Made by a program: the position numbers and the translations under genes | Part shown: positions 8,219-59,290 of the stretch, piece by piece | Layout of the letters: each line of letters starts with the position of its first letter | Position numbering within the stretch: position 1 is the stretch's first letter | NCBI GenBank assembly: GCA_905171695.1 | Contig: LR991653.1 | Coordinates: forward strand, 1,338,150-1,402,149 | Direction: 5' to 3' | Length of the DNA stretch: 64,000 nucleotides | Source of the DNA: Candidatus Methanoperedenaceae archaeon GB37 | GTDB taxonomy: Archaea > Halobacteriota > Methanosarcinia > Methanosarcinales > EX4572-44 | The notes under the pieces: model-generated | What the model was told of the DNA's origin: nothing | The model's input: the letters and a program-made list of their open reading frames with translations, nothing else | Databases searched by the model: none

Positions 8219-8236
8219 AAGCTTATGAAGAAACAT

Positions 8237-8277
8237 GAGTAACTTCGCCTAGGCTCGGAACGTTAGCAGAAATTCGG
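8237..8277 (+). repeat. Short-form cassette-junction site (E3): ...GAGTAAC...CGGAAC|GTTAGCAG-AAATTCGG
   Basis: Lies directly after hicA. GTTAGCAG (8262-8269) is the exact reverse complement of CTGCTAAC at 8836-8843. It shares GTTnnnnGAAATTC with the sites at 8852, 15006(-) and 27266. Confidence 0.55.
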
Positions 8278-13195: not shown

Positions 13196-13315
13196 CGGGT
13201 TGCGTAGCAATCTGGTTCATGTTTCTTCCTCTCGTTTTCTTCGTTAAACGAATCCAAGCCCTGTTTCTTTTGGTGGTTCAGGTCTCCTTTCCTCCGGGAA
13301 GGAGAATTGGAAATT

Positions 13316-13394
13316 TTGGCTAACGTTCTGCGGATAAAAGAAGTTGCCGAAGGCAATTTGGACGAAGCGTAGCGAAGCCTTTTATTAGATGATG
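13316..13394 (-). repeat. Long-form attC-like structured repeat (E5), decayed copy
   Basis: About 90% identical to 14323-14408 over TAACGTTyTGCGGATAAAAGAAGTTGCCGAAGGCAATTTGGrCGAAGCGyAGCGAA. Relative to that copy it lacks 7 nt (CCGCTGT), which removes half of one stem arm. Confidence 0.7.
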
Positions 13395-13410
13395 TGCGGA
13401 GTCCATATTA

Positions 13411-14322: not shown

Positions 14323-14408
14323 GTCATCTAACGTTTTGCGGATAAAAGAAGTTGCCGAAGGCAATTTGGGCGAAGCGCAGCGAAATCTTTTATCCGCTGT
14401 TATATGAC
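14323..14408 (-). repeat. Long-form attC-like structured repeat (E4)
   Basis: Minus-strand reading: GTCATATAAC-A-GCGGATAAAAG-(38 nt incl. TTGCCTTCGGCAA hairpin)-CTTTTATCCGC-AAAAC-GTTAGATGAC. It has a perfect 11-bp stem pair, and the outer boxes are 9/10 complementary. Confidence 0.8.
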
Positions 14409-14462
14409 CCGAAGGGTAAGGTTGCAAAGCAACCATAGAGTACCGAACCCCGTCTAATATTT

Positions 14463-14927: not shown

Positions 14928-14997
14928 TTCTTGACCTCCATAAATGACACTTTGAATCTCTTTAATATTTCTATTTCCAAAGGCAGGGTTCGGAATT

Positions 14998-15018
14998 TCA
15001 TATAACTATGTTATATCA
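14998..15018. repeat. Palindromic minimal site TCATATAAC-TAT-GTTATATCA at the boundary of the cassette region
   Basis: Read directly. It overlaps the stop codon (15011-15013) of the CcdA/DsbD-like gene. Its minus-strand half GTTATATGA-AATTCCG matches the conserved GTTnnnnGAAATTC motif. Confidence 0.7.
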
Positions 15019-16363
15019 CTCCGAGTTGGATCAGTGCGGCGAGTGCGAAGAGCGTTATCCCTGTTATGATGCGGAGGGCGACACGCCACTCTTCTCTGAA
15101 CGATTCAACCTTCTCTGGGGCAAGTCCCGTGGCGATGGCTGCGCCTATGAGAAGCACTGGGAGCATGACTCCGAGGTTGTAGATTGCAAGGTATAACATG
15201 GCACTTGATTTGCCGCTCTTTATCATCTCGAGTATTGCAAGGTATATGGCGCCGACACACGGGGCTTTTATAAGTGAGAAGAGGCTTCCGAGTATGAAGG
15301 ATGCTGGGAGGCTTGCACCTTCTATTGCTCGTTCGGTCATTTTTGTGAAGATTTTTGGTGTGCGGAAGGTCGATCTCTTGTTCTTCTCGGATGTGTGGAT
15401 GTGATATGCGTCGTATACCTGCCAGAGCCCGAGTGCTACGATTAAGAGAACCAAGAATGTCTGGACCCCTTCCTGCATCTCACTGCCGATGACTTCGAGA
15501 AGACCGATTCCGAATATCAGATAGGTGGTGAAGATCCCAGAGCTGAAGGCAATCACAATGTAGAGAACGTTTCTTCTCTTTCCAGTGGATGCAAGGGTGA
15601 TACTTGCTATGAATGCAATTATTGCAAATAGGCAGGGGTTCAATCCAGCAAATAGTCCCATGAGTAAGATTGAAGGTGGTGAAAGGTCTGGTCTAACGTT
15701 TATCGTCAGGTCTTCTGATGCAAAGGTATGGTTTGAATCGTTCAGATAGAGGATTGTTCTTGAGAGGAGCCGTCTGCCATACCCTGATTTCTCTACTCTG
15801 ACTTGGTAGGTGTACGAGGCTTTATCATGGGGCTTGAGTCGTGCGTTCCACGAGGTCTCTCCGCCGATGAGTGTTGCGTTCGAAGTGAGGCGTTCGGTTG
15901 CGTTGATCTCTGCACTCCTGTTGCCTGTGTTTGTGAGAGTGATTGTGACGTTGATGAGATCCCCAGGTGCAGTCGATGTCCTGTCTGACCTCTTCTCGAT
16001 CGTTATAACAGGTTTTCCTCCTAAGGATTCTTCGATCTCTCTAAGAAGGAGTCTCTTGAGGAGTGTGGTGTTGCCGTTGTAGTCTTCATAGCTAATGAGC
16101 GTTGTTTCATCTATCACGATGCTTGGGATCTCGAAGACTCCATAGCTCTTTGCCTTCAGGATTCCTTCGTCGTTCTTGAGGTTATAGATCTCGTAGTGTA
16201 CTTTTCCCTCGTATCTGTAAACGACCTCTTCAACGACTGGGCGTGCGTCCTCGCATCTTGAGCAGAGTGGGTCGTAGAAGTATTTCACGCTGATGGGAGA
16301 CCTGGCGCTGGCTGGTATTGAGGGGAGGAGTAGAAGTAAGAGGAGGAGTGGCAAGACTCTCAT
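15011..16363 (-). CDS. Thiol:disulfide transfer membrane protein (signal peptide + thioredoxin-like CxxC domain + beta-sandwich + CcdA/DsbD transmembrane domain)
   Basis: 450 aa with MRVLPLLLLLLLLPSIPASA; DPLCSRCEDARP; and a C-terminal polytopic region with GLNPCLFAIIAF and IKAPCVGAIYLAIL (the two conserved Cys of DsbD/CcdA). Confidence 0.7.
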   Translation of the reverse strand: MRVLPLLLLLLLLPSIPASARSPISVKYFYDPLCSRCEDARPVVEEVVYRYEGKVHYEIYNLKNDEGILKAKSYGVFEIPSIVIDETTLISYEDYNGNTTLLKRLLLREIEESLGGKPVITIEKRSDRTSTAPGDLINVTITLTNTGNRSAEINATERLTSNATLIGGETSWNARLKPHDKASYTYQVRVEKSGYGRRLLSRTILYLNDSNHTFASEDLTINVRPDLSPPSILLMGLFAGLNPCLFAIIAFIASITLASTGKRRNVLYIVIAFSSGIFTTYLIFGIGLLEVIGSEMQEGVQTFLVLLIVALGLWQVYDAYHIHTSEKNKRSTFRTPKIFTKMTERAIEGASLPASFILGSLFSLIKAPCVGAIYLAILEMIKSGKSSAMLYLAIYNLGVMLPVLLIGAAIATGLAPEKVESFREEWRVALRIITGITLFALAALIQLGVI

Positions 16364-17264: not shown

Positions 17265-17302
17265 CCCAATCCCCATCTTCTATATATTATATCCATGGGT
17301 GG
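17265..17302 (+). repeat. Left copy of a direct repeat bracketing the type III-C island
   Basis: CCCAATCCCCATCTTC (17265-17280) ... TGGGTGG (17296-17302). The same two blocks recur at 24825-24840 and 24846-24852. Confidence 0.8.
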
Positions 17303-17305
17303 CGG

Positions 17306-17391
17306 CGGGACGCGTCCATATAAAGCCGCGTAAATCTAAAAAACCGCTAACTGGCTTAGAGGGAAAATATACAAAGTGGACACATCCGCCC
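17306..17391. mobile_element. Miniature (about 86 bp) derivative of the IS6-like element (MITE-like)
   Basis: GGGACGCGTCCA (17307-17318) matches the IS left terminus GGGACCCGTCCA 11/12. GTGGACACATCCGCCC (17376-17391) matches the right terminus GTGGACACGTCCCC. Only about 57 bp lie between them and there is no ORF. Confidence 0.55.
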
Positions 17392-17437
17392 TACGTAATG
17401 ATAAAAAATAAAAGGTGGTATTGTATTAGATGAAAAC

Positions 17438-18523
17438 ATGGAAATTAAAATTAAGGCACTTACGCCCATCTGGACTGGTGGAGTGGAAGGCAAACCAGAC
17501 AGATTGCATACGACAAGCATCATTGGCAGCATGCGTTGGTGGTACGAGGTCGTTGTTAGGGGCCTTGGAGGGTATGCGTGTGATCCGTCGAGCGAAAAGA
17601 GATGTGAATTGTCGGGTAAGGAAAAGACACGTGAGGAAAGGCTTGCTAAGTTGTGCCCGGCATGTTATCTGTTTGGATGTGGGGGATGGAAAAGAAGATT
17701 TCGGTTAGAGGTTCAGAGTAATACCTCTGTTCCTTTTCAATTGGCCACTTTGGAAAGTAAGAACAAATTCAATCACTGGTGGCTTTCGCAGATTTTTGAA
17801 GATTCGCGAGGAACGAATTTACCATTTGGAGAGATATCATTGTCTTTAAATGGGGATGATGACGTGATTGATCAGGTTAAAGCTCTACTCTCTATCATGG
17901 TAAATATTGGTGGAATCGGTGCAAAAACTCAATATGGGTATGGTCAATTCGATTGGGACGATAAAATAGAATTAAAAAATGCGATTAACACAATTCGCCA
18001 GTTCTTATCAGGAAATATTTTTAAAAGCGGTTCAAACAAAGATAAATGGTATTCACTGACTAATTTTTGGTATTACAAATTGTCCATAACGTCTGACAAT
18101 GGGTTGGTGAACAAATTTAAAAATGCAAACTTGATTGGCAATGGAAATATGCCCTCGGATTATTTGCCTGTTTCGTTCGACATTCGCTATAAAATGCCAA
18201 GTTCTGGGGATGGTACTGGATTAAGGAGTGCATATTATTCATTTTGTAGGCATTCCATGTCAAAAGAAGACGCAAAACAAAAAACAAGATCATTATTTGG
18301 AACACTTGAAAATGATAAAATCGGAAGCAGGATTTTTGTAAGTCATCTTTTCAGGAGGAGAAACATTGATAATAATCATCATCTGAAAGTTTGGGGATTT
18401 ACTGACGATTCGGTTGGAAAAGTTGTTGGTGATGAATTAAAGAACATTTTTGGATTGGATAAACCCCCTTCTATAGTAACTGGAAAAGAGCTTATCAACT
18501 ACTCAAGGGGTGAAGTCCAATGA
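17438..18523 (+). CDS. cmr1: Type III RAMP protein, Cmr1-like (Cas7 group)
   Basis: 361 aa with IKALTPIWTGGVEGKPDRLHTTSIIGSMRWWYEVVVRGLGG, a Cys cluster ending CPACYLFGCGGW, and the Gly-rich GGIGAKTQYGYGQF. Confidence 0.75.
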   Translation: MEIKIKALTPIWTGGVEGKPDRLHTTSIIGSMRWWYEVVVRGLGGYACDPSSEKRCELSGKEKTREERLAKLCPACYLFGCGGWKRRFRLEVQSNTSVPFQLATLESKNKFNHWWLSQIFEDSRGTNLPFGEISLSLNGDDDVIDQVKALLSIMVNIGGIGAKTQYGYGQFDWDDKIELKNAINTIRQFLSGNIFKSGSNKDKWYSLTNFWYYKLSITSDNGLVNKFKNANLIGNGNMPSDYLPVSFDIRYKMPSSGDGTGLRSAYYSFCRHSMSKEDAKQKTRSLFGTLENDKIGSRIFVSHLFRRRNIDNNHHLKVWGFTDDSVGKVVGDELKNIFGLDKPPSIVTGKELINYSRGEVQ

Positions 18524-19767
18524 ATTATGATTATTGCTCGCATCTCACGAAGGAACAAAACCAAACCATTGAAAAAATATTGCGTCTAGAAAATGAAATA
18601 AAACAGGATAAACAGATAAAACAACAAAAAGAAACCGAAGTCGGAAGGCTACGAAAAGAATTATTATCACAAAACCCGCATTTGTTCTATCACGTTATAG
18701 CAGTGTTGAATAATTCATTAAAAGATAATTTACGCTCCACATGGCAAACGGGAAATATCAATATAAAATTGAACAATTACCATATCGATGAAATTATATC
18801 TCCATCAATCAACATATCCGTACTTCCAAAATACTCTTTTCTAATCCAATTCAAATTTACACTCGAAAAACCTTATATCTCACGTGATGAACAGGATTTT
18901 TACATCATAGACAATCCTATCCGCAAAGACAGGGTCTTTGGTCTTCCCTATATTACTCCCTCCTCATGGAAGGGAAGCCTACGGGCCGCACTGTGGCAAA
19001 ATGGACATAAAGAAGACGATGTCCAGATCAATCGAATATTTGGAAATAAACGAGGGATAGAAGAGCATACTGAACTCAAAGCCGGGCGATTGCATCTGTT
19101 TCCCACATTCTTTGATAGAATCGGTCTTGAGATAATAAATCCTCATAACAGGGAGAGACGGATTGTTGAGTATCCGATTCGTATCGAGGCCGTTCCGGGT
19201 GGTACATCGGGTATATTCACCCTTTTATATGTTCCATTCGATTTGATTGGGAAGAATGAAAAGGAGTTTAATAATCAGATCTCAAAAGATGTATGGATAA
19301 TTGCGCAGGGATTGAAAGCAATGTTCAGAGATTATGGCTTCGGTGCAAAGACTTCCAGTGGATTCGGTATTGCAAAACCAGAATTTACCGAAGGAAAACT
19401 CGTTCTGAAGGTCGAGGGCATAGACATCAACCAAAAAGAGGAGGCGACCATCCAAGAACCGGAGGACGGGTTTAAAAAATATCTTAATAGCGATGGGATT
19501 GTGAAAGAGGAGTTTAAAGGGAGTGGCGACGCTGGCCTTCTCAGCAACAATGAGTATAGCGAAACGGGTGAAAAATACGGCGGCGGCAGTCTTACCGAGT
19601 TCAAAAAGTTCAGGCGATGGTATGGCCGTTATGGTGAGAAATGGCAACAACAGTTAAAGAATTCTCATGCCGAATGGCCTATCTGGTGGTTTGAAAGCTT
19701 TGACGAGCTGGTGAATGTTGCGACGGAAATAAAAGAATCACTACTTTCCAAGGAGGCTGCGCGATGA
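18520..19767 (+). CDS. cmr6: Type III RAMP protein, Cmr6-like (Cas7 group) with N- and C-terminal extensions
   Basis: 415 aa with FGLPYITPSSWKGSLRAALW...INRIFG and the G-rich loop YGFGAKTSSGFG. It overlaps its neighbours by 4 nt at both ends (operon coupling). Confidence 0.7.
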   Translation: MNYDYCSHLTKEQNQTIEKILRLENEIKQDKQIKQQKETEVGRLRKELLSQNPHLFYHVIAVLNNSLKDNLRSTWQTGNINIKLNNYHIDEIISPSINISVLPKYSFLIQFKFTLEKPYISRDEQDFYIIDNPIRKDRVFGLPYITPSSWKGSLRAALWQNGHKEDDVQINRIFGNKRGIEEHTELKAGRLHLFPTFFDRIGLEIINPHNRERRIVEYPIRIEAVPGGTSGIFTLLYVPFDLIGKNEKEFNNQISKDVWIIAQGLKAMFRDYGFGAKTSSGFGIAKPEFTEGKLVLKVEGIDINQKEEATIQEPEDGFKKYLNSDGIVKEEFKGSGDAGLLSNNEYSETGEKYGGGSLTEFKKFRRWYGRYGEKWQQQLKNSHAEWPIWWFESFDELVNVATEIKESLLSKEAAR

Positions 19768-22451
19768 CTCCTGACCTTTCAGTTCTGAAGGAAAATAAGG
19801 AAGTCCTCCTCGCAGAGATGGCCGCCTGGCTGCATGATATGGGGAAGTGTAGCGATGAGATGATAGAAAAACAGGCTTTGGATTGTCCATCATCACCCAC
19901 ATTTCAATCCAATAGTGCATATAAAACCGCTTTTTCTTATCTACTGAATGGTAATAATCATAATATTAATTTGTTAGGCGAAACAGTAACCTTTAAAGAC
20001 CTCGTTGAAAAGGGGATGCCTAGGGCAATAAAGGATAGTAGTATTCAATTATCGCTAATTAAATACTTGGGTCGGTGTCATGCTGCTGCGCACATCGAAA
20101 AAGAAGGACAAGCAGATAAAAAGCAGACGGTGAATGATACAAGATTGAGTTCTCCCTTTGGAAATGAAACGGAAGTATTAGTACGTCTTACAGATAAGTT
20201 GAAAGCTTTGCCCTTTGATAAAATAGTCAACAGGGAGGAATTCCTGCCTATTTTGAAAGAAACATTCAAAAACGCACCTGGAGACACGGAAAGACCAATA
20301 AACGAGGTTGATCTGTGGAGCTGGTCCAGCATAGTCGCTGCTCTTTACAAATCTGCACTGGCAGGGGCACTTCTTGGTAACAAACCCAAACCAAATGATT
20401 TGAAGTGGCGGTTGTTGGCCATAAGAATTGATTCCGATAGGATTCTTGGCGATGTGGCGAAGATTCCAGTATTGCTTGCCAGAAAGAAATGGATTACCGA
20501 AGGGTTAGATAATGTTAAAGAACTGATTGAAGAAGAATATCCTCTTGGAAACGAGGTTTACAGGGATGAGAGCGGAAGTATTTTCGTTGTGCCGGACATC
20601 CCGAGTCTATTGAAACTTAAAGAAAATGCGGATAGTTCTGAAAAGACCTTGGAAGATTTAATCTCCAAAAAGTTAGGATTTGAAGGAGAGATTGTTGTAA
20701 CGCCTTCGTTATCTGAACACTGGTGGGGTCAGAATCCTAGTGGAAGACCTGATCCTACGAAAGATAAGATCCCACCGATTGGAGAGATCTTTCAGGAAAA
20801 ACCATATTCACCACCGGACCCAGAAAAGGTTAAGGAATGGTGGCGGGATGTGGACAATACAGAGATTTGCACGATTTCCTGGCTGAGACCTCAGGGAAAA
20901 AAAGAAGGAGCTTTGAGAAAATCTTCAGATTACTGGGCAAAAAAGGTTCGGGGACGATCTGAAGAATGGTATAAGGACAGGAGCAAAACTATATGGATAG
21001 ATGAGGTGGCAGATAAAAACGGCAGAATATGTCTCATCACCGGCAAACTGGACATATCAGGATGGTTAAAACCTAACGGTCATGTGAGGACCCTGCTTGT
21101 TAAGGCTCCAGATGGTAATTCCAGTCAAGTCATTCAGAAAACCCCTTCATTCGCTCGCCTCAGACGTGTCTGGGAAACAACAAAGACGTTCTGGGAGGAA
21201 GTCGAAGAAGATTTTGAGAAAACTGTCGGCAGGGTAGAAAAAAGATTGGTTATTACTGGCTCTGTAGATGATCTATCCAAAAATAAGCTTTTTAAAAACA
21301 ATGTGTATGAGATAGATATCGAAAAAACAAGGGTAAGTGTTTTCTATTCTGGAAATGGTCGGTTTATTGTCGTTGAAAATCTTGAACGATTGGCCCGTAA
21401 GATGGGTTATTCAAAGAACGATGATGACTATTTAGTGTACATTCAACAAGAATTAAACGATAAAGAAGTCAGAATATATAATCCAGACGGTAATAATAGA
21501 AATAAGCACATTGTACTAATAAAAATGTTGAGGGTCGAGCCGATAGAGGATAATTTCATTCCTGTGATCCCTATCTTCTCTGAGCCCAGTCTATTCATGG
21601 CAATCGTACCTGCCAACAAGGCTATGGACATCGTAAAAAACATCAATAAAAAATATGAAATAGAAATGGATAAAGTACGAAACCGTCTCCCTCTTAATAT
21701 CGGATTGACCTTTGCCAGATCTCATACGCCGATAATGGCTTTAATGGAGTCGGGGTGGAAGATGATAAACGCATCTCTAAAGGAGGAAATCAGGATACTC
21801 AATGCAGACTCTGAAAAATGCGATGATAAATATATCTTAAATTTCGAGAACGGGATAACCTGGCGTGTTCAGGGGAAAATGGGGGATGGAATAACAGAAG
21901 ATGTTTGGTATCCGTATTTTTATGTGGATGGAAATCCGAACGATAGAAATATGGTTTTTAAAGGTCCGAAGGGGTGGCTAGTGCATGTATCAGAATTAAA
22001 AAAAGGGGATGCCGTCAAAATCACACCTTCCTCTTTTGATTTCGAGTTTCTGGATTCTGCATCCCGGAGGTTTGAGATATCTTATGATGAAACTGGAAAA
22101 CGGCGTGATAATACAAAATCTAACCGTCCATATTTGATTGATAAATTTGATGACTTCGAGCGTATCTGGAAAGAGATGACAAATAATTTAGCAGCCACTC
22201 AAATAAAGAACGTCATAGGCCTTATTGAAACCAAACGGGAGGAATGGAATGTTTCCAGAGATGATGAAACATTCAAACAATTCGTCAATGATGTTCTCCG
22301 CAATGCCAACTGGAAGCATGGCACCCCTCAAAACCTCGATGAGATCACAAACATAGCAGTAAGTGGAGAGTTAAAAGATATTATCGAACTTTACATGAAT
22401 ATACTGAAGGCAAAAGGAGATTATATGAACGATACAGAGGTGAATACATGA
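19764..22451 (+). CDS. cas10: Cas10 large subunit with N-terminal HD domain and no GGDD cyclase motif
   Basis: 895 aa with HD motif AAWLHDMGK at residues 20-28. The conserved post-palm segment is RLPLNIGLTFARSHTPI. Where GGDD is expected about 40 aa upstream, the sequence reads SEPSLFMAIVPA. No GGDD occurs anywhere in the protein. Confidence 0.8.
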   Translation: MTPDLSVLKENKEVLLAEMAAWLHDMGKCSDEMIEKQALDCPSSPTFQSNSAYKTAFSYLLNGNNHNINLLGETVTFKDLVEKGMPRAIKDSSIQLSLIKYLGRCHAAAHIEKEGQADKKQTVNDTRLSSPFGNETEVLVRLTDKLKALPFDKIVNREEFLPILKETFKNAPGDTERPINEVDLWSWSSIVAALYKSALAGALLGNKPKPNDLKWRLLAIRIDSDRILGDVAKIPVLLARKKWITEGLDNVKELIEEEYPLGNEVYRDESGSIFVVPDIPSLLKLKENADSSEKTLEDLISKKLGFEGEIVVTPSLSEHWWGQNPSGRPDPTKDKIPPIGEIFQEKPYSPPDPEKVKEWWRDVDNTEICTISWLRPQGKKEGALRKSSDYWAKKVRGRSEEWYKDRSKTIWIDEVADKNGRICLITGKLDISGWLKPNGHVRTLLVKAPDGNSSQVIQKTPSFARLRRVWETTKTFWEEVEEDFEKTVGRVEKRLVITGSVDDLSKNKLFKNNVYEIDIEKTRVSVFYSGNGRFIVVENLERLARKMGYSKNDDDYLVYIQQELNDKEVRIYNPDGNNRNKHIVLIKMLRVEPIEDNFIPVIPIFSEPSLFMAIVPANKAMDIVKNINKKYEIEMDKVRNRLPLNIGLTFARSHTPIMALMESGWKMINASLKEEIRILNADSEKCDDKYILNFENGITWRVQGKMGDGITEDVWYPYFYVDGNPNDRNMVFKGPKGWLVHVSELKKGDAVKITPSSFDFEFLDSASRRFEISYDETGKRRDNTKSNRPYLIDKFDDFERIWKEMTNNLAATQIKNVIGLIETKREEWNVSRDDETFKQFVNDVLRNANWKHGTPQNLDEITNIAVSGELKDIIELYMNILKAKGDYMNDTEVNT

Positions 22452-23407
22452 ACAGTGAAAAGAAAAAGCTGTACACCCACCAGCGGTTTGTAATGTTCGC
22501 TCTTGACCCGATTCATATTGGGGCTGGTGGATACCGTCTTGGTCGGGTTGACAACAGTATTGTAAGAGAAATGGGGACGAATTTACCGAAGATTCCGGGT
22601 ACAAGCCTTGCAGGTGCCGCGCGAAGTTATGCTTCGATGAGATATGGGAAGCCTGAAGCCGCAGGCCAGCATAAACGGTTTATAGGTGAAAAAGAGAAGT
22701 GCCCGATAATCTACACCTTTGGAACCGCAACGGAAACCGGTGGTGAGGCAGGCAAGGTCAGCTTTGGAGATGCAAGGATTTTATTCTTCCCGGTGCCTTC
22801 AGTGGCGGGTCCTGTATGGGTCACCACAAAGGAGATTCTTGAGGAAGTTGGGTTCACCGTTAATGGTGGCGATGTCGGTGAGGAAACTGTGCTGTCCAAT
22901 CTTTCCTGGAGTAAAGAGCAAATAAACCTCGGCTGGTTATCGTTGAATCATAACTGGGGCTTAACCATTTCTCCACCCGAAGAAATCAAAGACAAAAAGG
23001 GATGGAAAGCAATAGAAAACAGGATTGTCCTCATTTCTCAGAAATTGTTTTCAGAGGTTGTCAACAGCAATTTGGAGGTGCGAACATCGGTTGCCATAAA
23101 CCCCGAGACCGGAGCTGCTGAAGACGGTGCCCTGTTCACATATGAAGCATTACCTCGAGCTACCTGGTTATGGCATGATATCATCGAGGATGATTACAAA
23201 CAAAGTTTCCCGAAAACGGAAAATCAATTCAAAGATAACAAGGAAAACAGTGGGGATGCTCTCGGGGAGATATGGGAGCGACCGTTGGATGTTGTGAAAG
23301 CCGGTTTAAGATTAATCGAATACCTTGGAATCGGTGGCATGGGGACACGCGGTTTTGGGAGGATGAAAAACATCTGTGATTGGGAGGTTGGCAGTAATGA
23401 ATCTTGA
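22448..23407 (+). CDS. cmr4: Cmr4-like Cas7 backbone subunit
   Basis: 319 aa with ALDPIHIGAGGYRLGRVDNSIVRE...LPKIPGTSLAGAARSYA and the C-terminal GIGGMGTRGFGRM glycine-rich loop. Confidence 0.8.
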   Translation: MNSEKKKLYTHQRFVMFALDPIHIGAGGYRLGRVDNSIVREMGTNLPKIPGTSLAGAARSYASMRYGKPEAAGQHKRFIGEKEKCPIIYTFGTATETGGEAGKVSFGDARILFFPVPSVAGPVWVTTKEILEEVGFTVNGGDVGEETVLSNLSWSKEQINLGWLSLNHNWGLTISPPEEIKDKKGWKAIENRIVLISQKLFSEVVNSNLEVRTSVAINPETGAAEDGALFTYEALPRATWLWHDIIEDDYKQSFPKTENQFKDNKENSGDALGEIWERPLDVVKAGLRLIEYLGIGGMGTRGFGRMKNICDWEVGSNES

Positions 23408-23762
23408 CCTTGAAGCTACGAGAACCTCCCAGGAAATAATAACGAAGACGGGAGGAAATAGATCCAGTGAGGTTGAAAACCTGATTACTAAGACGCTAGG
23501 GGTTCTTCAGGAGAACGGCATTTATGCATGCACACTCTATCTGAACTCCAGAACGAGTGAAGCGGAGAAGAAGATTGGCCCTGTCATCCACGAGGAACTT
23601 CTTAAAATGACGAAACGACTTGTTAAGACACCAATAAAAAACGATGATTACGAATATCTTACGGACGAAATCTGTTCAGACATTGACCTACTTATACTAA
23701 CAAAACAGCTCTGGGAGCAGACATTGACCTATGCTAGATACGGGGCGAAAGCAAGGACGTGA
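23397..23762 (+). CDS. cmr5: Cmr5-like small subunit (Cas11)
   Basis: About 121 aa and predicted helical (..VENLITKTLGVLQENGIYACTLYLNSR..). It lies between cmr4 and cmr3. The ATG at 23397 overlaps the cmr4 stop region; the track ORF starts at 23376. Confidence 0.6.
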   Translation: MNLDLEATRTSQEIITKTGGNRSSEVENLITKTLGVLQENGIYACTLYLNSRTSEAEKKIGPVIHEELLKMTKRLVKTPIKNDDYEYLTDEICSDIDLLILTKQLWEQTLTYARYGAKART

Positions 23763-23766
23763 TATT

Positions 23767-24660
23767 ATGACATGGACCCCCTATCTTGTAAGTTTCAAAT
23801 TGCGCTCACCAGTTCATATCGGATGGAAAAAAATTGGAAACTTGCAAGTAACACGCCCTTACATTACCGGAAAAACATTATGGGGTGCGCTGACAGCAAG
23901 ACTTGTTAGAGATGAAGGGAATAGCAATTATAGTGAGATTGGAAAACAAGTAGATGATGAATTACGCTTCACTTACTTTTATCCATCAACTAGTCCAGAT
24001 AAGGTCAATCTATGGCCATGGGATAAAAAGAACGAGTTTGCCTGGAAATTTCTGGGTAGTTATATCAGTACTGCAATAGAAGGCGATACCGCCGAGGAAG
24101 GGAGCCTCCATGAGGTTGAGTATATATCCCCAACAACTCGTGATGGAAACCCGGTCTTTCTTGTTGGGTATGTGATTGAAAAGAAGGATTGCCACTTGAA
24201 ATGGAAGGAAGCTTTAAAGCGGATTCAAATTGGCGGTGAGAGAGGATATGGATGGGGACGAACTGAGTTATTGAGCGATCCCAAACCAGTAGAAGAGTGC
24301 TTTGGTTATAGAATCGATAATTCCGAGATTTCTCCAATGATTTCTATTCCCAAAGATAATGTGATTCTTGCACATGCAAAAACCGATTTCCTAAAATGCA
24401 TAGGATATATTGAACCATTTCTGGGGAGAGAAACAAATGATTCGGATGGCGTTGGTGGAAAAATACCGCACCCTATAGGTGGAAAAATACCGCACCCTAT
24501 AGGTGGAAAAATACCGCACCCTATAGGTGGAAAAATACCGCACCCTATAACATGTTACACACCAGGGAGTAAAGTTGTGGCCGATACAACATTCGTTATT
24601 CAACCGAAAGGAGTATGGGAAAAAACGAGGTGCAATAGTTCGGGAGGTTCCAATCCATGA
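23767..24660 (+). CDS. cmr3: Cas5-group RAMP (Cmr3/Csx10-like) with an internal tandem octapeptide repeat
   Basis: MTWTPYLVSFKLRSPVHIGWKKIGNLQVTRPYITGKTLWGALTARLVR..., IGGERGYGWGR glycine-rich loop, then (GGKIPHPI)x4. It is the last gene of the operon. Confidence 0.65.
   Translation: MTWTPYLVSFKLRSPVHIGWKKIGNLQVTRPYITGKTLWGALTARLVRDEGNSNYSEIGKQVDDELRFTYFYPSTSPDKVNLWPWDKKNEFAWKFLGSYISTAIEGDTAEEGSLHEVEYISPTTRDGNPVFLVGYVIEKKDCHLKWKEALKRIQIGGERGYGWGRTELLSDPKPVEECFGYRIDNSEISPMISIPKDNVILAHAKTDFLKCIGYIEPFLGRETNDSDGVGGKIPHPIGGKIPHPIGGKIPHPIGGKIPHPITCYTPGSKVVADTTFVIQPKGVWEKTRCNSSGGSNP
24454..24549 (+). repeat. Perfect 4 x 24-bp in-frame tandem repeat (GGTGGAAAAATACCGCACCCTATA)
   Basis: Read directly: units at 24454-24477, 24478-24501, 24502-24525 and 24526-24549, with no mismatch. 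Each unit encodes GGKIPHPI. Confidence 0.97.
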
Positions 24661-24803
24661 CTCTGCGGACACTCCGTGTCCTTGCCTCGCCTTCGGCTCG
24701 GTCATATAACATGCGGGTATGCGGTTCGGGCTTACGCCCTCACCCAAATTGCTCCGCTCCCGTTGGTCGCTACGCAACTTCGCATACCCGCAAACCGTTA
24801 TAC
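24661..24803 (+). repeat. Long-form attC-like structured repeat (E1) immediately 3' of the type III-C operon
   Basis: CTCTGCGGACACTCCGTGTCCTTGCCTCGCCTTCGGCTCG-GTCATATAAC-AT-GCGGGTATGCG-(58 nt incl. CACCCAAATTGC)-CGCATACCCGC-AAACC-GTTATAC. It has the same architecture and conserved blocks as 14323-14408(-), but the 11-bp stems carry different, mutually compensating sequences. Confidence 0.8.
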
Positions 24804-24824
24804 CAACAATAAGTTTACAGAACC

Positions 24825-24852
24825 CCCAATCCCCATCTTCTTATATGGGTGG
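24825..24852 (+). repeat. Right copy of the direct repeat bracketing the type III-C island
   Basis: CCCAATCCCCATCTTC (24825-24840), TTATA, TGGGTGG (24846-24852). Compare 17265-17302. Confidence 0.8.
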
Positions 24853-24943
24853 TGTGTCTCGATATCTCTTTTATTGGTCTCATAGTTTATGTACCAAAAC
24901 AGATATACTATGATTGTCATCCAGCCGTCTTGTATTCGATTGT

Positions 24944-25049
24944 GCGAGGGTAACCAAGTCGGCCAAAGGTGCAGGACTTAAGTGGTACTGGTGGTATCGG
25001 AGTTATCCTGTCTCGAAGGAGTTCATGGGTTCAAATCCCATCCCTCGCA
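24944..25049 (+). tRNA. tRNA-Leu (anticodon UAA) with a 22-nt intron after position 37
   Basis: Acceptor GCGAGGG/CCCTCGC; anticodon stem CAGGA (24972-24976)/TCCTG (25006-25010); loop CTTAAG + intron TGGTACTGGTGGTATCGGAGTT (24983-25004) + A; long variable arm; T arm ATGGG-TTCAAAT-CCCAT. No CCA is encoded. Confidence 0.8.
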
Positions 25050-25094
25050 TCAAAAACAGAAAATTTTCTGAATTGTGATGGATGTGGTCTCTTG

Positions 25095-25634
25095 ATGGTT
25101 GACGATGATACTCTCTTTGGCGAGGTTGTTCGGGTGGATGGTGTGAATGTGTATCTTGTGAGGTCGGTCTCTCGGTCTTCTCGTGAGCTTGGTGTTGGCG
25201 AGTTCGTGGGAGTTGAGTGTGGAGGGGATGTTGTGGTCTCTGTTCTCACTGGCGTGGAACGGTCGATACCTGAGGATGTGGTATCGATGATCTCTCTTGA
25301 GATGGAGTCGAAGTATCTCCCTTACAGTTCTGAGCTGGATAGTAGCTATTATCGTCTCTTTGGGCTTGGGCTTCTCTCCCGGAGTGGTGTTCAGCATGGT
25401 CTTCGTGTGGCTCCGCGGCTTCGCAGCAGGGTGTGGCGATTGGATGATGATACGATCAGGAAGTTTCACCTACCTCATGGTCGTGCTAACATCTCTTACT
25501 TCAATCGGTATCGTGAAGCACTCGGGGATGATCTCCTGCTTGCGATCGTTGATGAGCTCTGGGCTCTTCTGCCAGAGGCTCGGAGGATGCTTGCGCCGGT
25601 CAGGAAGTACCTTAAGGGTGGTGGTGCACTCTGA
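25095..25634 (+). CDS. Hypothetical protein resembling a stand-alone HerA-type N-terminal barrel domain
   Basis: From the internal Met (the track ORF start at 24969 lies inside the tRNA). FGEVVRVDGVNVYLV...GEFVGVECGGDVVVSVLTGVER parallels the N-terminal region of the downstream ATPase. Confidence 0.4.
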   Translation: MVDDDTLFGEVVRVDGVNVYLVRSVSRSSRELGVGEFVGVECGGDVVVSVLTGVERSIPEDVVSMISLEMESKYLPYSSELDSSYYRLFGLGLLSRSGVQHGLRVAPRLRSRVWRLDDDTIRKFHLPHGRANISYFNRYREALGDDLLLAIVDELWALLPEARRMLAPVRKYLKGGGAL

Positions 25635-25642
25635 GCGGGTGT

Positions 25643-27223
25643 GTGATCGGGCTTGTCTTGACGCACACGCGTGAGGGCTTCTCTTTTGTAACGAAGTACT
25701 CACTTGCATCTGGCGAGTTTGTCTCTTATCGGTCTGGGAGTGATCGCGTCCTTGCCCGTGTGAGTCATACTGAGCCCTTGCGGGATTATCCTGTGGAGTT
25801 CCTGCTCGATCCCGAGGTTGACGCTGAGGATGTTGCACTCTTTTATGGGCTTGATGCAGATGATTATCGGTTTTATCGTGTGCATGCACGGGTTGTGGGC
25901 TACTTTGACAGGCGGGTTAACGAGTTCATAAACCCGCGTATGATGCCGCTCTCAGGGACGAGGATAGAGCGAGTGGATGAGACGATCCTCTCGGATGTGA
26001 ACCGGGTCTCTGCAGACGAGGTTGGCTCGGCTCACATCGGCACGATACTTGGCACGAAGACCGATGCTGTTCTCTCTGTTCGTGAGATGGTGAGCCAGCA
26101 TCTCTCAATCATCGCTGCAACGGGCGCAGGCAAGTCCTATACCGTTGGCGTGATCGTGGAAGAGTTGATCTCGGCAAAGAACATGGCGTCGGTATTGATC
26201 TTCGATCCACACGGCGAGTACAGTGTGCTAAGCGAGATTCAGAACGATCAGAGCTTCTGGGAAGAGGGGTATCGACCAAGGGTGCGGATCGTTAAGCCGG
26301 ACCAGATAAAGATCAGACTCGGTGATCTCACGCCTGGCGATTTTATCAGTATCATGGACGATGGTAACATGTCAGAGAAGATGAAGACGCTCTTTGTGGA
26401 GGCTTATGAGAGTTTGAAGAGGGATGAGAGGAGCCTCACACGAAGTTTCACCAGGAACGAGCTTCGTGAGACTATTGAGGGCTTAAGTGATGGCAAGAAT
26501 GAGCTGAGCATTGCAGGCCTCCTCTGGCGCTATGATAGGATGGTGCGTGAGAAGATCTTCGATGACTTTCGGAGCATCCCACTCCGCGAGTACTTCCAGC
26601 CAGGGCTTCTCACCATAATGGATGTCTCAGGCATAGGGGAGTGGAAACAGCAGTTGATCGCAACGATTCTCCTCCGCCAGCTCTTCGATTCTCGGGAGGG
26701 CACAGATAATGAGCGTTACAGTGAAGAGTTCCGACCTGAGCGTTATCTACCCTATCCTGTCTTCCTGATACTTGAAGAGGCGCACAGGTTTGCACCGCAG
26801 AGTGGAGATGCGAAATCGAGACAGATACTCAAGAAAATCCTATCAGAGGGTCGAAAATTTGGAATTGGCGTATGCATGGTCTCACAGCGCCCAAGTAAAC
26901 TCGATTCAGATGCGCTCTCTCAGTGTATGACACAGATCACGATGCGAATCATCAATCCAGCAGATCAAAAGCAGATAGGAGAGAGCATCGAGTCGGTGAG
27001 CAGAGACCTGCTCGAAGAGCTACCAGCCCTCACACGGGGGCAGGCGATCGTAAGCGGTGTTGCCATAAACACACCGATCATCGTTGATATCAGAAAGCGG
27101 CGCACAAGAGAGATAGGTGGGACGAGCAAGGACGCACCGCAACTCTGGAGAGAAGAGATGCAAGAGAGGCGATATGAGACGGTGGAGAGACGGCCAAGCT
27201 ACGAACTCGATGTGGGAGTATAA
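25643..27223 (+). CDS. HerA/DUF87-type P-loop ATPase
   Basis: 526 aa with Walker A IIAATGAGKSYTV, Walker B/sensor VFLILEEAHRFAP, and GRKFGIGVCMVSQRPSKLD, typical of HerA/FtsK-like DUF87 ATPases. Confidence 0.75.
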   Translation: MIGLVLTHTREGFSFVTKYSLASGEFVSYRSGSDRVLARVSHTEPLRDYPVEFLLDPEVDAEDVALFYGLDADDYRFYRVHARVVGYFDRRVNEFINPRMMPLSGTRIERVDETILSDVNRVSADEVGSAHIGTILGTKTDAVLSVREMVSQHLSIIAATGAGKSYTVGVIVEELISAKNMASVLIFDPHGEYSVLSEIQNDQSFWEEGYRPRVRIVKPDQIKIRLGDLTPGDFISIMDDGNMSEKMKTLFVEAYESLKRDERSLTRSFTRNELRETIEGLSDGKNELSIAGLLWRYDRMVREKIFDDFRSIPLREYFQPGLLTIMDVSGIGEWKQQLIATILLRQLFDSREGTDNERYSEEFRPERYLPYPVFLILEEAHRFAPQSGDAKSRQILKKILSEGRKFGIGVCMVSQRPSKLDSDALSQCMTQITMRIINPADQKQIGESIESVSRDLLEELPALTRGQAIVSGVAINTPIIVDIRKRRTREIGGTSKDAPQLWREEMQERRYETVERRPSYELDVGV

Positions 27224-27326
27224 AAGAACAACCAGACCACATGCTACCCAATGCAGAAAACCCGTGTTAAGCGAAATTGCCTCAGCAAAAGTAGGTTCTA
27301 TGAAGTCTTAGAGAAGGGTACAAAAT

Positions 27327-27815
27327 ATGCCAGAATGGAAAAATCACGATAAGTGGGCTGAAAAAATGGGGATATCAAAAGAGACTTCAAAGTTTGTCAA
27401 TGGTCTAATTGATTTTCCAAAAAATTGTCAAGAGTTCCAAGATTTTTGTGAGAGAGACCCTAGTGCAAGAATTTTTACCAAAGGTAGACCAACACGCATG
27501 ACTGTAGCATCCCTAATAACCCACGATAGTGGTAGAAGTAACAAATTTTATAGAGAAATACAGCTAAAATTCTTATCACAAAAAGGGAGCGATCATGTAA
27601 AAGCATATTATCTACACCAAGTTTTAGATTATATAGAATGGTGGATTAAAAATTATTCTGAAGAAAATCTAACCGTTGAAAACATTTTACAGGAAAAAAG
27701 GTTGGAAAAGAAAATTGGCGATCCTATAAACGAAGAATTACAGTCAGTGGTGAAATTTGCAATCCAAAATTCAGAGGAAATATTGCAAGATTATAGCAGG
27801 GATGACATAAAATGA
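27327..27815 (+). CDS. Hypothetical protein (AT-rich single-gene cassette)
   Basis: 162-aa ORF, compositionally unlike its flanks and bounded by GTTAAGCG (27266) and the structured repeat at 27885. No family recognised. Confidence 0.5.
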   Translation: MPEWKNHDKWAEKMGISKETSKFVNGLIDFPKNCQEFQDFCERDPSARIFTKGRPTRMTVASLITHDSGRSNKFYREIQLKFLSQKGSDHVKAYYLHQVLDYIEWWIKNYSEENLTVENILQEKRLEKKIGDPINEELQSVVKFAIQNSEEILQDYSRDDIK

Positions 27816-27884
27816 TCAGAGAATCTATACTTTTAGTTGAAGATAATTCTTTGCCCATTTCATTAGCTCAGCGCTGTTGCACTC

Positions 27885-27956
27885 ACTTAACACGGTGTAT
27901 GCAGTTCGCTTTCATTTACCCACACTGTTCGGCTTCACAGCGCATTTCGCATACAC
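27885..27956 (+). repeat. Long-form attC-like structured repeat (E8)
   Basis: ACTTAAC-AC-GGTGTATGC-(46 nt)-GCATACAC-AAGAA. It has a perfect 8-bp stem pair GTGTATGC/GCATACAC. ACTTAAC fits RYYYAAC. No clear GTT box follows. Confidence 0.6.
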
Positions 27957-28049
27957 AAGAATGGATGAGGGATTACACCGTTTGATTAAGTATAAATCCG
28001 ATGGTGTGAGTACTCGGGAAGATGATCTTACGTCTGCAGGGATAGAATC

Positions 28050-55182: not shown

Positions 55183-55185
55183 AAT

Positions 55186-59214: not shown

Positions 59215-59290
59215 AAGGGTTCTGGATGTGGAAAGGATTAATAAAGACGGAGAAGATAGTTAAATATTGCTTTACTGTTGGTGAAAAAAT

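Follow-up and report, generated by a model that had tools for sequence, protein, structure and literature searches.

Integron cassettes are usually thought of as single-gene units of about 1 kb. Regarding CRISPR-Cas systems, Tn7-like CRISPR-associated transposons and plasmid type IV systems provide instances of effector modules which, devoid of adaptation genes, have become the cargo of mobile elements, where they serve the element's own transposition or plasmid competition.

In the literature searched, the defense functions found so far in integron cassettes correspond to small systems or single regulators (bioRxiv 10.1101/2024.07.02.601719; PMC10661359). A text search of the former report ("Mobile Integrons Encode Phage Defense Systems") gave no mention of CRISPR, and the latter describes cassettes encoding one CRISPR-associated regulator, Csa3. 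Integrons have also been described in archaea, together with CALINs, whose definition requires at least two attC sites with a spacing below 4 kb (Ghaly et al., 2022, Sci Adv, PMC9668308).

Here, we report on a locus from a Methanoperedenaceae-related archaeon (order Methanosarcinales) in which a structured element, E1, is very probably the attC site of an integron gene cassette having as cargo a complete type III-C CRISPR-Cas effector operon. Defense as a cassette function is shared with both of these reports, the difference from Csa3 cassettes being that a whole multi-subunit effector complex is concerned instead of a single regulator; no earlier report of a whole type III-C effector complex as an integron cassette was found in the literature searched. 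A six-subunit complex conserved as a cassette would enlarge what integrons are known to move, and the archaeon joins those with attC-bearing cassettes. In contrast to the Tn7-like and type IV effectors, there is no indication of a role of the type III-C complex in recombination, and it looks like passive cargo.

A Type III-C Effector Operon and its 3' Element

The window (i.e., the whole 64-kb stretch of DNA analyzed) contains the following features in and around the operon:

17265..17281, plus strand: 17-nt direct repeat CCCAATCCCCATCTTCT, upstream copy (blastn-short 17/17, E 4.8e-4)
17390..17437, plus strand: what survives of the cassette 5' untranslated leader, the L123 and L128 cassettes being homologous from here on (GCCCTACGTAATGATAAAAAATAAAAGGTGGTAT)
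17438..24660, plus strand: six-gene type III-C effector operon, 7.2 kb (Pfam RAMPs, NCBIfam, PADLOC)
17438-18523, plus strand: cmr1
18520-19767, plus strand: cmr6
19764-22451, plus strand: cas10c/csx11
22448-23407, plus strand: cmr4
23376-23762, plus strand: cmr5
23731-24660, plus strand: cmr3
24661..24700, plus strand: conserved 5' extension of the attC; its first base is the base after the cmr3 stop codon
24667-24672 / 24676-24681, plus strand: extension hairpin GGACAC/GTGTCC, then CCTTGCC, then GCCTTCGGC
24701..24806, plus strand: attC site E1
24701-24710, plus strand: R'' GTCATATAAC
24712-24723, plus strand: L'' (T)GCGGGTATGCG, followed by a variable hairpin
24743-24752, plus strand: conserved CCCAAATTGC, followed by a second variable hairpin
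24775-24781, plus strand: CAACTTC
24781-24792, plus strand: L' CGCATACCCGC(A), followed by the spacer AACC
24797-24806, plus strand: R' GTTATACCAA
G24797 / T24798, plus strand: predicted crossover (inferred)
24825..24841, plus strand: 17-nt direct repeat, downstream copy, starting 28 nt past the predicted crossover
24944-25049, downstream of this repeat: intron-containing tRNA (Rfam tRNA, 48.1 bits)

With PADLOC, Cas10c (741.6 bits) and Cmr5 (117 bits) are labeled CAS-III-C, and Cmr1, Cmr6, Cmr4 and Cmr3 are recognized at 102-268 bits. Cas10c and the five Cmr proteins being encoded in a single operon, the definition of a type III-C module is met and the subtype proposed by the earlier note stands. 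A different subtype name, first hinted at by the NCBIfam Csx11 match on the operon's Cas10 (598 bits), was rejected, as PADLOC and the gene order both back type III-C. Gene content, gene order and strong profile matches are those of known type III-C modules, the differences being the bounding by cassette recombination sites and the absence from the operon of adaptation genes (cas1/2), cas6 and a CRISPR array. No CRISPR-like tandem array was found anywhere in the window. Without array and cas6, the module would therefore need crRNAs from another CRISPR-Cas locus, one candidate being the type I-B locus with cas6b located at 52-59 kb of the window, Cas6b being encoded at 58504-59214.

The stop codon of cmr3 occupies 24658-24660 and the element thus begins directly after the operon, as had been proposed. 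Two copies of this structured element were compared, E1 with its extension (24661-24806, plus strand) and the following one:

14323..14408, minus strand: attC site E4, terminating a DUF3795 cassette

E1 reads CTTCGGCTCGGTCATATAAC-AT-GCGGGTATGCG...CCCAAATTGC...CAACTTC-GCATACCCGC-AAACC-GTTATAC and E4, on the minus strand, CTTCGGGTCATATAAC-A-GCGGATAAAAG...CCCAAATTGC...CAACTTC-TTTTATCCGC-AAAAC-GTTAGAT. The block-by-block match drawn by the earlier note is thus that of the sequence and both 11-bp stems are perfectly complementary as claimed, the arms differing however at four positions (5, 8, 9 and 10; GCGGGTATGCG versus GCGGATAAAAG) and not at five.

The boxes of both copies (ATATAAC...GTTATAC in E1, ATATAAC...GTTAGAT in E4) satisfy the R'' (RYYYAAC) and R' (GTTRRRY) pattern of attC sites, with one deviation in E1 at the variable R/Y positions, and the perfect stem of E1 (11-12 bp) satisfies the requirement for L'' and L'. 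As for integron attCs, E1 is located 3' of its cargo with a common orientation, its ~100 nt being in the range of attC lengths. Canonical attC sites have a symmetric unpaired spacer and extrahelical bases, by which the choice of strand is set, whereas E1 has a fully paired L stem without bulged bases and, between R and L, a one-sided internal loop (1-2 nt versus 4-5 nt on the top strand; consensus A versus AAAAC). Two further peculiarities are the invariant motifs CCCAAATTG and CAACTTC carried by its tip and the conserved extension of ~40 nt upstream of R''. This extension can be aligned with the sequences preceding E4 and the operon-linked attCs of three related loci (L129, L130 and L128), and is also present upstream of many foreign copies (e.g., L048, L052, L001 and L041). 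Its hairpin covaries, GGACAC/GTGTCC in E1 corresponding to GGTTGC/GCAACC in E4.

Folded as single-stranded DNA, the bottom strand of E1 reaches -27.3 kcal/mol (z -3.7 against shuffled controls) and the top strand -20.9 kcal/mol (z -2.3). E1 might instead act mainly as RNA, forming the structured 3' end of the operon transcript (terminator, stabilizer or processing signal) with only a secondary likeness to attC, a reading that we judge improbable. Since E1 directly follows the cmr3 stop codon, its plus strand is probably transcribed; this strand folds better than shuffles, and the hairpins of the extension lie outside the R''-R' limits and have no known recombination role. However, it is the non-transcribed strand that folds better, the stem is followed by AAACCGTTATACCAACAAT and not by a run of T, and a terminator scan of 24300-25300 gave no plus-strand site at E1, this being a weak test for an archaeon because the model is bacterial. 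Moreover, an RNA hairpin would need neither AAC...GTT boxes nor the complementarity between cassette 5' end and R'' nor the breaks of homology at G|TT described below, and the same-strand arrays of the family and the integron integrase adjoining it also speak against this reading, a secondary RNA role being not excluded. Among curated RNA families (Rfam 15, gathering score), no match was obtained at E1 or E4, the whole window giving only two tRNA matches.

A Widespread Family of Covarying attC Sites

A pattern scan of bacterial and archaeal genomes identified at least 120 loci, from many groups, with copies of this attC family. Eighty-five foreign copies (alignment A1) were used to build a covariance model, R1, which contains no window sequence. 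The invariance of GTTA in these copies was imposed by the scan pattern; AAC, left free in this pattern, is kept in at least 90% of them. Pairing amounts to 95.9% in the L stem, 9 of its 11 pairs having compensatory changes that alter both sides, and falls to 26-43% when the 3' partner is slid. The covariation score amounts to 0.310 versus 0.108 in shuffles (none out of 500 reached the observed value) and 0.04-0.09 with the slid partner. Selection on a folded structure, which had been claimed from two copies, is borne out by these values.

In the window, R1 recognizes E4 with 92.6 bits (E 1e-20) and E1 with 69.1 bits (E 1e-14, full model covered), as well as two further copies at 13315-13400 (minus strand, 54.9 bits) and 27882-27973 (plus strand, 17.8 bits, E 0.11). 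Elsewhere it gives 156 matches over 100 foreign loci, 37 of which hold two to seven copies, always on a single strand. The family hence forms, as integron attCs do, same-strand arrays, and it shares with them an integrase nearby in a related locus (L131). By its sequence, E1 is shown to be a member of this covarying family, and the qualification "attC-like" is upheld by the R'' (..TAAC) and R' (GTTA..) boxes, the covarying L''/L' arms, the position 3' of same-oriented genes, the arrays and the adjoining integrase. AAC/GTT boxes, covarying stem and near-identical sites across bacterial and archaeal phyla are features in common with the attCs described by Ghaly et al. (PMC9668308). No usable match to the conserved motif of the family was found in the supplements of this study or in the literature searched. 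These copies define a very widespread, sequence-conserved type of attC that can be searched directly. A MITE or insertion-sequence identity was considered and rejected: there are no target-site duplications, the "terminal repeats" correspond to the AAC/GTT boxes and the flanks fit cassette logic.

The Site Follows Diverged Homologues of the Operon

The closest genome, that of Methanoperedenaceae archaeon GB50 (LR991654.1), was reached by a Cas10 homology search, which gave 463 homologues; exact-sequence look-ups of the Cmr3 and DsbD-like proteins of the window gave no match. In GB50, in which the E1 sequence is identical, the attC lies within ~40-70 nt of cmr3. It likewise follows cmr3 in L129 (a single substitution relative to E1), L130 and L143-145, as well as in L123/L124 and L128, whose Cas10 proteins are 71% and 62% identical, respectively. 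The samples with L123 and L143-145 come from the Guaymas Basin and from oil reservoirs (SRR28876186, JGI 3300006094, JGI 3300003664). Homologous operons down to 62% Cas10 identity thus have an attC right after cmr3, whose product has a conserved ...GGSNP* terminus, and the contexts found downstream are of four kinds. The stems of these sites differ with pairing kept (GCGGGTATGCG/CGCATACCCGC, ACGGGTATCTG/CAGATACCCG and GGGGACATACG/CGCATGTCCCC, a single G-C pair having become G-T in the last), the L128 copy having a degenerate R' (ATTAAAT) and an imperfect stem.

A further homologue, L125 (68% Cas10 identity), lacks an attC and belongs to a complete cas locus comprising cas3, cas4, cas1 and cas2. 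As a metagenome scan with the Cmr3 alignment gave only eight loci, the comparison of attC-bearing and attC-less operons remains small. In L122, the AAAACGTTAGGTGCAAT found at the end of cmr3 was examined as a possible attC remnant and discarded, protein alignment identifying it as homologous coding sequence with a frameshift.

Cassette Boundaries in Related Loci

In two lineages, a 5' boundary, G|TTATATGAAATTATGG, is kept and is complementary to the R'' box of the attC itself, as is the case for integron cassettes. The motif GTTATATGAAATTATGG is found upstream of the first gene, at 86 nt in L123 and L143-145 and at 98 nt in L128. It differs at 1 of 10 positions from the reverse complement of the L123-type R'' (GTCATATAAC) and at 2 of 10 from that of the L128 R'' (GTTATATAAC). 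For L123, the start GTTATATGAA agrees with the reverse complement of R'' GTTATATGAC at 9 of 10 positions, versus 7 of 10 with the downstream R' GTTATGTGCA. A G|TT junction with a 5' end complementary to its own R'' is present in L123 and also in an Rce1-like cassette of the window (see below).

Upstream of GTTATATGAAATTATGG, the L123 and L128 sequences differ, and past the 3' G|TT those of the window, L130, L123 and L128 are unrelated. Homology between contexts therefore stops at the G|TT crossover points. The proposal of the earlier note that the operon is or was mobilized by this attC family gains comparative support from these breaks, from the attC after cmr3 in diverged operons and from the conserved 5' boundary. 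At the level of sequence comparison, both the linkage of operon and attC across diverged homologues and the cassette-type boundaries at both ends in related loci are shown. That the whole six-gene operon would have moved as one unusually large cassette of ~7.5 kb is supported, its recombination activity being inferred.

These data bear on the idea that E1 is a stray attC, left by a former small cassette and lying by chance beside an operon that was never one. E1 is a singleton in the window, the 5' side of the window operon has no cassette boundary, cassettes usually comprise a single gene over ~1 kb and the region is strewn with decayed attCs, all of which would suit a chance neighborhood. 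Against it, operons of 62-71% Cas10 identity and in different contexts have the same attC at an unchanged position past the ...GGSNP* end of Cmr3, with a matching 5' boundary conserved 86-98 nt upstream of the first gene. This explanation is largely refuted and we regard it as highly improbable.

The 5' boundary of L123 and L143 is found 68 nt past the stop codon of a truncated tyrosine-recombinase gene, a position matching that of archaeal attI sites, which are reported to follow intI directly (PMC9668308). An apparent insertion sequence accounts for the truncation of the recombinase gene that precedes the L123-type copy. Considering this truncation together with the degenerate R' and imperfect stem of L128, all the copies observed may be fossils. 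Neither empty site nor circular form nor strain polymorphism was found, and recent mobility is consequently unproven. In the empty-site search, homologues of the 226-aa lipoprotein gene of the left flank either had another genomic context or came from very short contigs. On the herA side, a relative (L139) is without the operon, the tRNA and the cassette encoding a 162-aa protein; its upstream synteny was too different to define a breakpoint.

Recombinases Associated With the Family

In the related locus L131, an ORF at 17082-18047 matches "integron integrase" (TIGR02249) with 458.7 bits, the cut-off being 265. This gene is 7 kb downstream of a type III-C cassette, on the same strand and within the same region of cassette arrays (L128/L131). 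Proteins clustering with it at 90% identity were designated integron integrase at source, one of them coming from a Fidelibacterota MAG. Association with an integron integrase is met in this related locus only and not in the window, in which a tblastn search with the L131 integrase gave no match for a tyrosine recombinase of the integron kind over the 64 kb.

Tyrosine recombinases were also found at eight foreign loci, 0.9-6 kb from a family attC and either divergent or upstream on the same strand. Five of them were scanned and pass or nearly pass NF040815 (XerA/integron integrase), remaining below the TIGR02249 cut-off, with a match split where the IntI-specific insert lies. Several foreign copies thus adjoin XerA-like recombinases below the integron-integrase cut-off, an observation which goes against the cassette reading in its classical form. 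The sites could accordingly belong to an integron-like system run by XerA-type recombinases without the IntI insert, and not by classical IntI, the type III-C module being its cargo. We hold this unlikely, without dismissing it. Besides the neighborhoods just mentioned, the C-terminal fragment (..TTELYTHVSNNELSKIKNPLDSL) that precedes the L123 cassette is similar to the ends of XerA-like proteins. However, the array region of the L128/L131 type III-C cassette also includes a full, insert-bearing integron integrase, the architecture of the sites is that of attC, and action of XerA-like proteins on them is untested. Furthermore, 8 of 9 archaeal attCs tested recombine with the class 1 IntI1 (Ghaly et al., PMC9668308).

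Proposed Mechanism and Fate of the Window Copy

Returning to E1 as the attC of an integron cassette, a mechanism can be proposed from established integron biology. The bottom strand of E1, as single-stranded DNA, would fold into a hairpin composed of a short R box (TAAC/GTTA), an asymmetric internal loop (1-2 versus 4-5 nt) and a 12-bp L stem, with a branched tip in which the invariant motifs CCCAAATTG and CAACTTC would enclose two variable hairpins. An integron-type tyrosine recombinase would bind this fold and cut between G24797 and T24798. Recombination between two attCs would then release the operon and its attC as a circle of ~7.5 kb, which for L123 and L143-145 would join ...CCCGTCCG to TTATATGAAATTATGG, and recombination between attC and attI would insert the circle behind the integrase gene. 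Folding as single-stranded DNA in vivo, the point of cleavage and actual recombination activity of E1 are all inferred, the more stable fold of the bottom strand being merely indirect support for its use by IntI.

In the window, the cassette is a relic. Alignment with the L123 and L128 cassettes indicates that its first ~48 nt, including the G|TTATATGAAATTATGG boundary and hence the crossover site, are missing and have been replaced; the boundary motif is absent upstream of the operon and no integrase lies within the 64 kb, two points in which the window differs from integrons. With only the 3' boundary left, the cassette has probably lost its mobility here. The 17-nt repeat pair encloses the leader, the operon and E1, its upstream copy showing one SNP in GB50. 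This repeat bracketing the module suggests a later relocation by a process other than integron recombination.

Besides the absence of an integrase and of extrahelical bases in the L stem, two observations on the window copy count against the cassette reading. It is without a 5' boundary (the GTTATATGAAATT-type motif), and E1, having no other attC within 4 kb and an orientation opposite to that of E4, fails the clustering rule for CALINs (PMC9668308). The 7.5-kb length of its cassette makes E1 a singleton by this criterion. A six-gene CRISPR-Cas effector operon of 7.2 kb, in place of one short ORF, indeed exceeds the attC spacing allowed in calling integron arrays. If the cassette reading is true, a blind spot of this rule for finding integron arrays is exposed.

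Beyond this locus, integrons or integron-like platforms may move complete type III-C complexes devoid of array and adaptation genes, as single cassettes of 7.5 kb, between distant lineages, among them a Methanoperedenaceae archaeon and a host that is probably bacterial, as deduced from the L131 integrase cluster with its Fidelibacterota MAG. A recipient could plug such a new interference machine into its resident arrays, and these cassettes would be missed by standard integron surveys because of attC spacing above 4 kb. We lean only slightly toward this broader proposal. If true, it would offer a concrete route for the horizontal, possibly cross-domain, spread of array-less CRISPR interference modules.

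Other Cassettes and attC Remnants of the Window

Apart from the type III-C module, the window contains further small cassettes and sites in various states of decay:

8241..8266, plus strand: 3' end of another attC (..AACTTCGCCTAGGCTCGGAACGTTAGCAGAAAT; inverted repeat I8), downstream of HicB/HicA-like frames
13315..13400, minus strand: degenerate attC (L'' and R'' partly deleted), terminating the Rce1-like cassette
14259-13411, minus strand: Rce1-like ORF
14927-14463, minus strand: DUF3795 ORF; its cassette starts with G|TTATATGAA at 15006-14997
27266..27973, plus strand: small cassette between herA and tyrS, starting with G|TTAAGCGAA at 27266-27275
27327-27815, plus strand: 162-aa ORF of this cassette
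27882-27973, plus strand: its decayed attC

In the remnant at 8241..8266, only L', spacer and R' are recognizable. The segment corresponding to the cassette between herA and tyrS is wholly missing in L139, where both genes are 216 nt apart. The DUF3795 and Rce1-like cassettes end with sites located 1 kb apart, both on the minus strand. The start of the former differs at 1 of 10 positions from the reverse complement of the E4 R'' (GTCATATAAC). Between the Rce1-like cassettes of the window and of L128, no sequence similarity was detectable. In the window one, the R'' remnant TCATCTAA mismatches its own downstream R' (GTTAGCCAAA) and is complementary to its own cassette start, TTAGATGA, which is the distal part of the R' of E4.

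Sequence and fold of the element downstream of the type III-C operon

The structured element located 3' of the type III-C operon (E1) and a second copy on the opposite strand (E4), each re-read on its own strand, have the common block layout that an earlier note had described. From 5' to 3', it consists of (G)GTCATATAAC, 1-2 bases, an 11-nt arm, a variable hairpin, CCCAAATTGC, a second hairpin and CAACTTC merging into the complementary arm, followed by an A-rich spacer of 4-5 nt and GTTA. The first arm is GCGGGTATGCG in E1 versus GCGGATAAAAG in E4, the complementary one being CGCATACCCGC or CTTTTATCCGC. As claimed, the two stems differ, yet each is perfectly complementary; the differences number four per arm and not five. 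E1 does lie directly after the operon, its first base following the stop codon of the last gene (24658-24660). Searching the window with R1, a covariance model made from foreign copies only, retrieved both elements and two poorer ones:

24661-24806, plus strand: E1, read from the sequence; its attC part (24701-24806) scores 69.1 bits
14323-14408, minus strand: E4, read from the sequence; 92.6 bits
13315-13400, minus strand: degenerate attC copy; 54.9 bits
27882-27973, plus strand: weak attC remnant; 17.8 bits

As single-stranded DNA, the bottom strand of E1 folds at -27.3 kcal/mol (z -3.7 versus shuffled controls) and the top strand more weakly, at -20.9 kcal/mol (z -2.3). An extension of about 40 nt 5' of the R'' box (CTGCGG, hairpin, CCTTGCC, CTTCGG) is conserved at 24661-24700 and, on the minus strand, at 14409-14448. 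Its hairpin covaries between E1 and E4, and it is common to many foreign copies, other subfamilies having different extensions.

A covarying, array-forming family of sites

Scanning one genome per species for the pattern CCAAATTGC..CAACTTC..CGTTA returned at least 120 loci. Among those listed, hosts include bacteria (Patescibacteria, Atribacteria, Bacteroidota, Spirochaetes, Dehalococcoidia, Omnitrophota, Nitrospirota) and archaea (Methanosarcinales, ANME-1/Methanophagales, Thermoplasmata, Nanoarchaeota, Promethearchaeota, Micrarchaeota, Bathyarchaeota, Altarchaeum). An identical attC core of about 65 nt (AACAGCGGATAAAAGGGAAATCAAAGATTTCCCCAAATTGCCTTCGGCAACTTCTTTTATCC) recurs across phyla (L010, L020, L052, L078, L079, L087, L116, L119), in MAGs of Bacteroidota, Patescibacteria, Methanosarcinales, Methylomirabilis, Dehalococcoidia, Aerophobetes and an unclassified bacterium (L078), which points to very recent cross-phylum and cross-domain exchange, or to binning errors.

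When 85 distinct foreign copies are aligned, 95.9% of the cells in the 11-bp stem are paired, and both-sided changes occur at 9 of the 11 pairs. The stem covariation score reaches 0.310, versus 0.108 for shuffled columns (0/500 attaining the observed value) and 0.04-0.09 when the 3' partner is slid, so that the proposed selection on a folded structure is borne out. In the outer box, the four proximal pairs (TAAC/GTTA) are nearly invariant and the distal ones poor (69.5% paired over the whole helix), as would follow if the next cassette contributes the distal half of R'.

Over 100 foreign loci, R1 found 156 sites; 37 loci carry 2-7 of them, always on a single strand and mostly spaced by 0.5-2 kb, while a Leptonemataceae chromosome has dozens across about 100 kb. 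Recombination at G|TT yields hybrid junctions, and such junctions are visible in the window. On its minus strand, the order is a DsbD-like gene, G|TTATATGAA, a DUF3795 ORF, E4, an Rce1-like ORF and the degenerate attC, whose R'' remnant TCATCTAA complements TTAGATGA, with which its own cassette begins and which forms the distal end of E4's R'; to the following R', GTTAGCCAAA, the remnant has no complementarity. With same-strand arrays, association with integrases and these junctions, the label "attC-like" is justified, and E1 belongs to this family. It is not ruled out that E1 has an additional role at the RNA level, in termination or in processing; such a role leaves the AAC/GTT boxes, hybrid junctions and arrays unexplained, and the element lacks a hairpin-plus-T-run.

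The operon as a probable cassette

A search of homologous operons with R1 placed a family attC 40-70 nt 3' of cmr3 in L123/L124 (Cas10 71% identical to that of the window), L128 (= L131, NPIE01002735.1; 62%), L129 (Cmr3 92%), L130 (Cmr3 86%) and L143-145, close relatives of L123. The attC-bearing operons share the Cmr3 C-terminal end ...GGSNP*. The orthologous stems differ with pairing kept, as in L130 (ACGGGTATCTG/CAGATACCCG); L123 (GGGGACATACG/CGCATGTCCCC) has one G-C to G-T change. The sequence 3' of G|TT is unrelated among four contexts:

Window and L129: tRNA-Leu
L130: AAA-ATPase gene
L123: other genes
L128: AhpC cassette that has an attC of its own

At the 5' end, L123, L143-145 and L128 share the motif GTTATATGAAATTATGG, almost exactly the reverse complement of R'' in the cassette's own attC (GTCATATAAC). 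The motif precedes the first gene by 86 nt (L123, L143-145) or 98 nt (L128), and the sequences before it differ between L123 and L128. In L123 and L143, 68 nt separate this boundary from the stop codon of a preceding tyrosine-recombinase gene, of which only the last ~36 codons survive, upstream of an apparent insertion-sequence fragment; archaeal attI sites have been reported immediately downstream of intI (Ghaly et al., PMC9668308). In L128/L131, the cassette sits inside a same-strand array (attCs at 1582, 15011 and 15836, a weak one at 21194), preceded by a degenerate attC 3' half. A full integron integrase (TIGR02249, 458.7 bits for a cut-off of 265) is encoded 7 kb away from this array. 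This contig is probably bacterial, since the 90%-identity cluster of the integrase includes an "integron integrase" of a Fidelibacterota MAG.

No attC was found with L122 (83% Cas10), where the end of cmr3 is frameshifted and other sequence follows it, with L125 (68% Cas10), whose operon lies within a full cas locus (cas3, cas4, cas1, cas2), or with four more distant operons (L132-L135). The linkage of site and operon holds across divergence, and cassette-type boundaries exist at both ends in related loci. These comparative data refute the reading of E1 as a stray attC beside the operon by chance, and support the proposal that the operon is, or was, mobilised by the family. It is supported that E1 is an attC of a known kind and the operon itself the cassette, this 7.5-kb type III-C unit being a new form of a known mobile element. 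By inference from integron biology, the bottom strand of E1 would fold and be cut between G24797 and T24798, the cassette leaving as a circle and entering at attI. Current recombination activity has not been demonstrated.

The recombinase serving the family may not always be a classical IntI, and this remains open. In eight foreign loci (L027, L028, L039, L102, L004, L105, L048, L029), a XerA-like tyrosine recombinase is encoded at a distance of 0.9-6 kb from a family attC, either divergently or on the same strand and upstream. The five scanned (L027, L028, L039, L102, L004) passed or nearly passed NF040815 (XerA/integron-integrase), did not reach the integron-integrase cut-off, from which this doubt arises, and lack the IntI-specific insert. 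No integron-type tyrosine recombinase was found in the 64-kb window.

Archaeal integrons and CALINs, with near-identical attCs across domains, have been described in a survey that demanded an attC spacing below 4 kb, whereas the present cassette spans 7.5 kb, and that does not mention CRISPR (Ghaly et al. 2022, PMC9668308). Cassettes for the CRISPR-associated regulator Csa3 have been reported (PMC10661359). CRISPR goes unmentioned in the other defence-cassette papers searched, and the limited literature collection searched yielded no description of a cassette made up of an entire CRISPR-Cas effector operon.

State of the window copy

The window is archaeal (TBP, 2993-3559; intron-containing tRNA, 24944-25049) and syntenic with Candidatus Methanoperedenaceae archaeon GB50 (LR991654.1), in which Cas10 is 95% identical and E1 identical. 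The type III-C assignment stands, with cmr1, cmr6, cas10c/csx11, cmr4, cmr5 and cmr3 present; the operon has no cas6, cas1/2 or CRISPR array, and no array occurs anywhere in the 64 kb. Two more CRISPR-Cas gene sets occupy the 52320-63488 region, one of them type I-B-like (Cas8b, Cas7, Cas5, Cas3, Cas6b) and the other including a RAMP protein, starting at 59291.

Homology to the L123 and L128 cassettes starts about 55 nt upstream of the first ATG; the first ~48 nt of the cassette, crossover site included, are missing. The leader, the operon and E1, together with a further 27 bases, lie between two direct copies of the 17-nt sequence CCCAATCCCCATCTTCT, one at 17265-17281 and one at 24825-24841 (blastn-short E 4.8e-4); the repeat grows to about 30 nt with an 11-nt indel, and the upstream copy in GB50 has one SNP. 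This repeat is not an integron-type junction and suggests later relocation by a non-integron process, of unresolved mechanism. Neither an empty site nor a circular junction was found.

Other cassettes and remnants in the window

Between herA and tyrS, a small cassette starts at G|TTAAGCGAA (27266) and comprises a 162-aa ORF and the decayed attC at 27882-27973; in L139, a related locus, it is missing and 216 nt separate herA from tyrS. A possible short attC 3' remnant follows the herA stop (27240-27275, by eye). In Ca. Ethanoperedens thermophilum (L142, WNEG01000089.1), a family attC (7918-8009, 63 bits) lies directly 3' of a 179-aa/HerA gene pair homologous to window 25092-27223; this pair may once have been a cassette too; alternatively, the position may be a hot spot for insertions.

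A head-to-head mini-palindrome at 14997-15019, TTCATATAAC-TAT-GTTATATCAC, overlaps the stop codon of the DsbD-like gene and gives, on the minus strand, the start of the DUF3795 cassette, G|TTATATGAAATT. L123 and L143-145 have a near-identical junction, GATATAAC-TT-G|TTATATGAAATT, ahead of their type III-C cassette. The palindrome could be a simple attI-like site or a collapsed attC. Another attC 3' end (..AACGTTAGCAGAAAT, 8241-8266) follows HicB-like and interrupted HicA-like frames (7790-8235), probably as part of a decayed toxin-antitoxin cassette.

The tRNA at 24944-25049 (Rfam 48.1 bits) was missed by ARAGORN and is missing in L139; its anticodon loop, by eye, reads Leu(UAA), with a long variable arm. 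Within cmr3, four perfect 24-nt tandem repeats (24454-24549) encode GGKIPHPI x4, an insertion that none of the homologues in alignment A3 has. The low-G+C stretch from 4 to 14 kb holds DDE transposase fragments as inverted and direct repeats (I1-I5, D3, D10, D19; 5068-7729). They resemble a decayed cluster of insertion sequences that borders the cassette region, beside tRNA-Arg (4444-4520). Four tandem 15-nt units (GGAAGTAATATAACG, 5774-5833), each with an R'-like core GTTATAT on the minus strand, adjoin insertion-sequence fragments.
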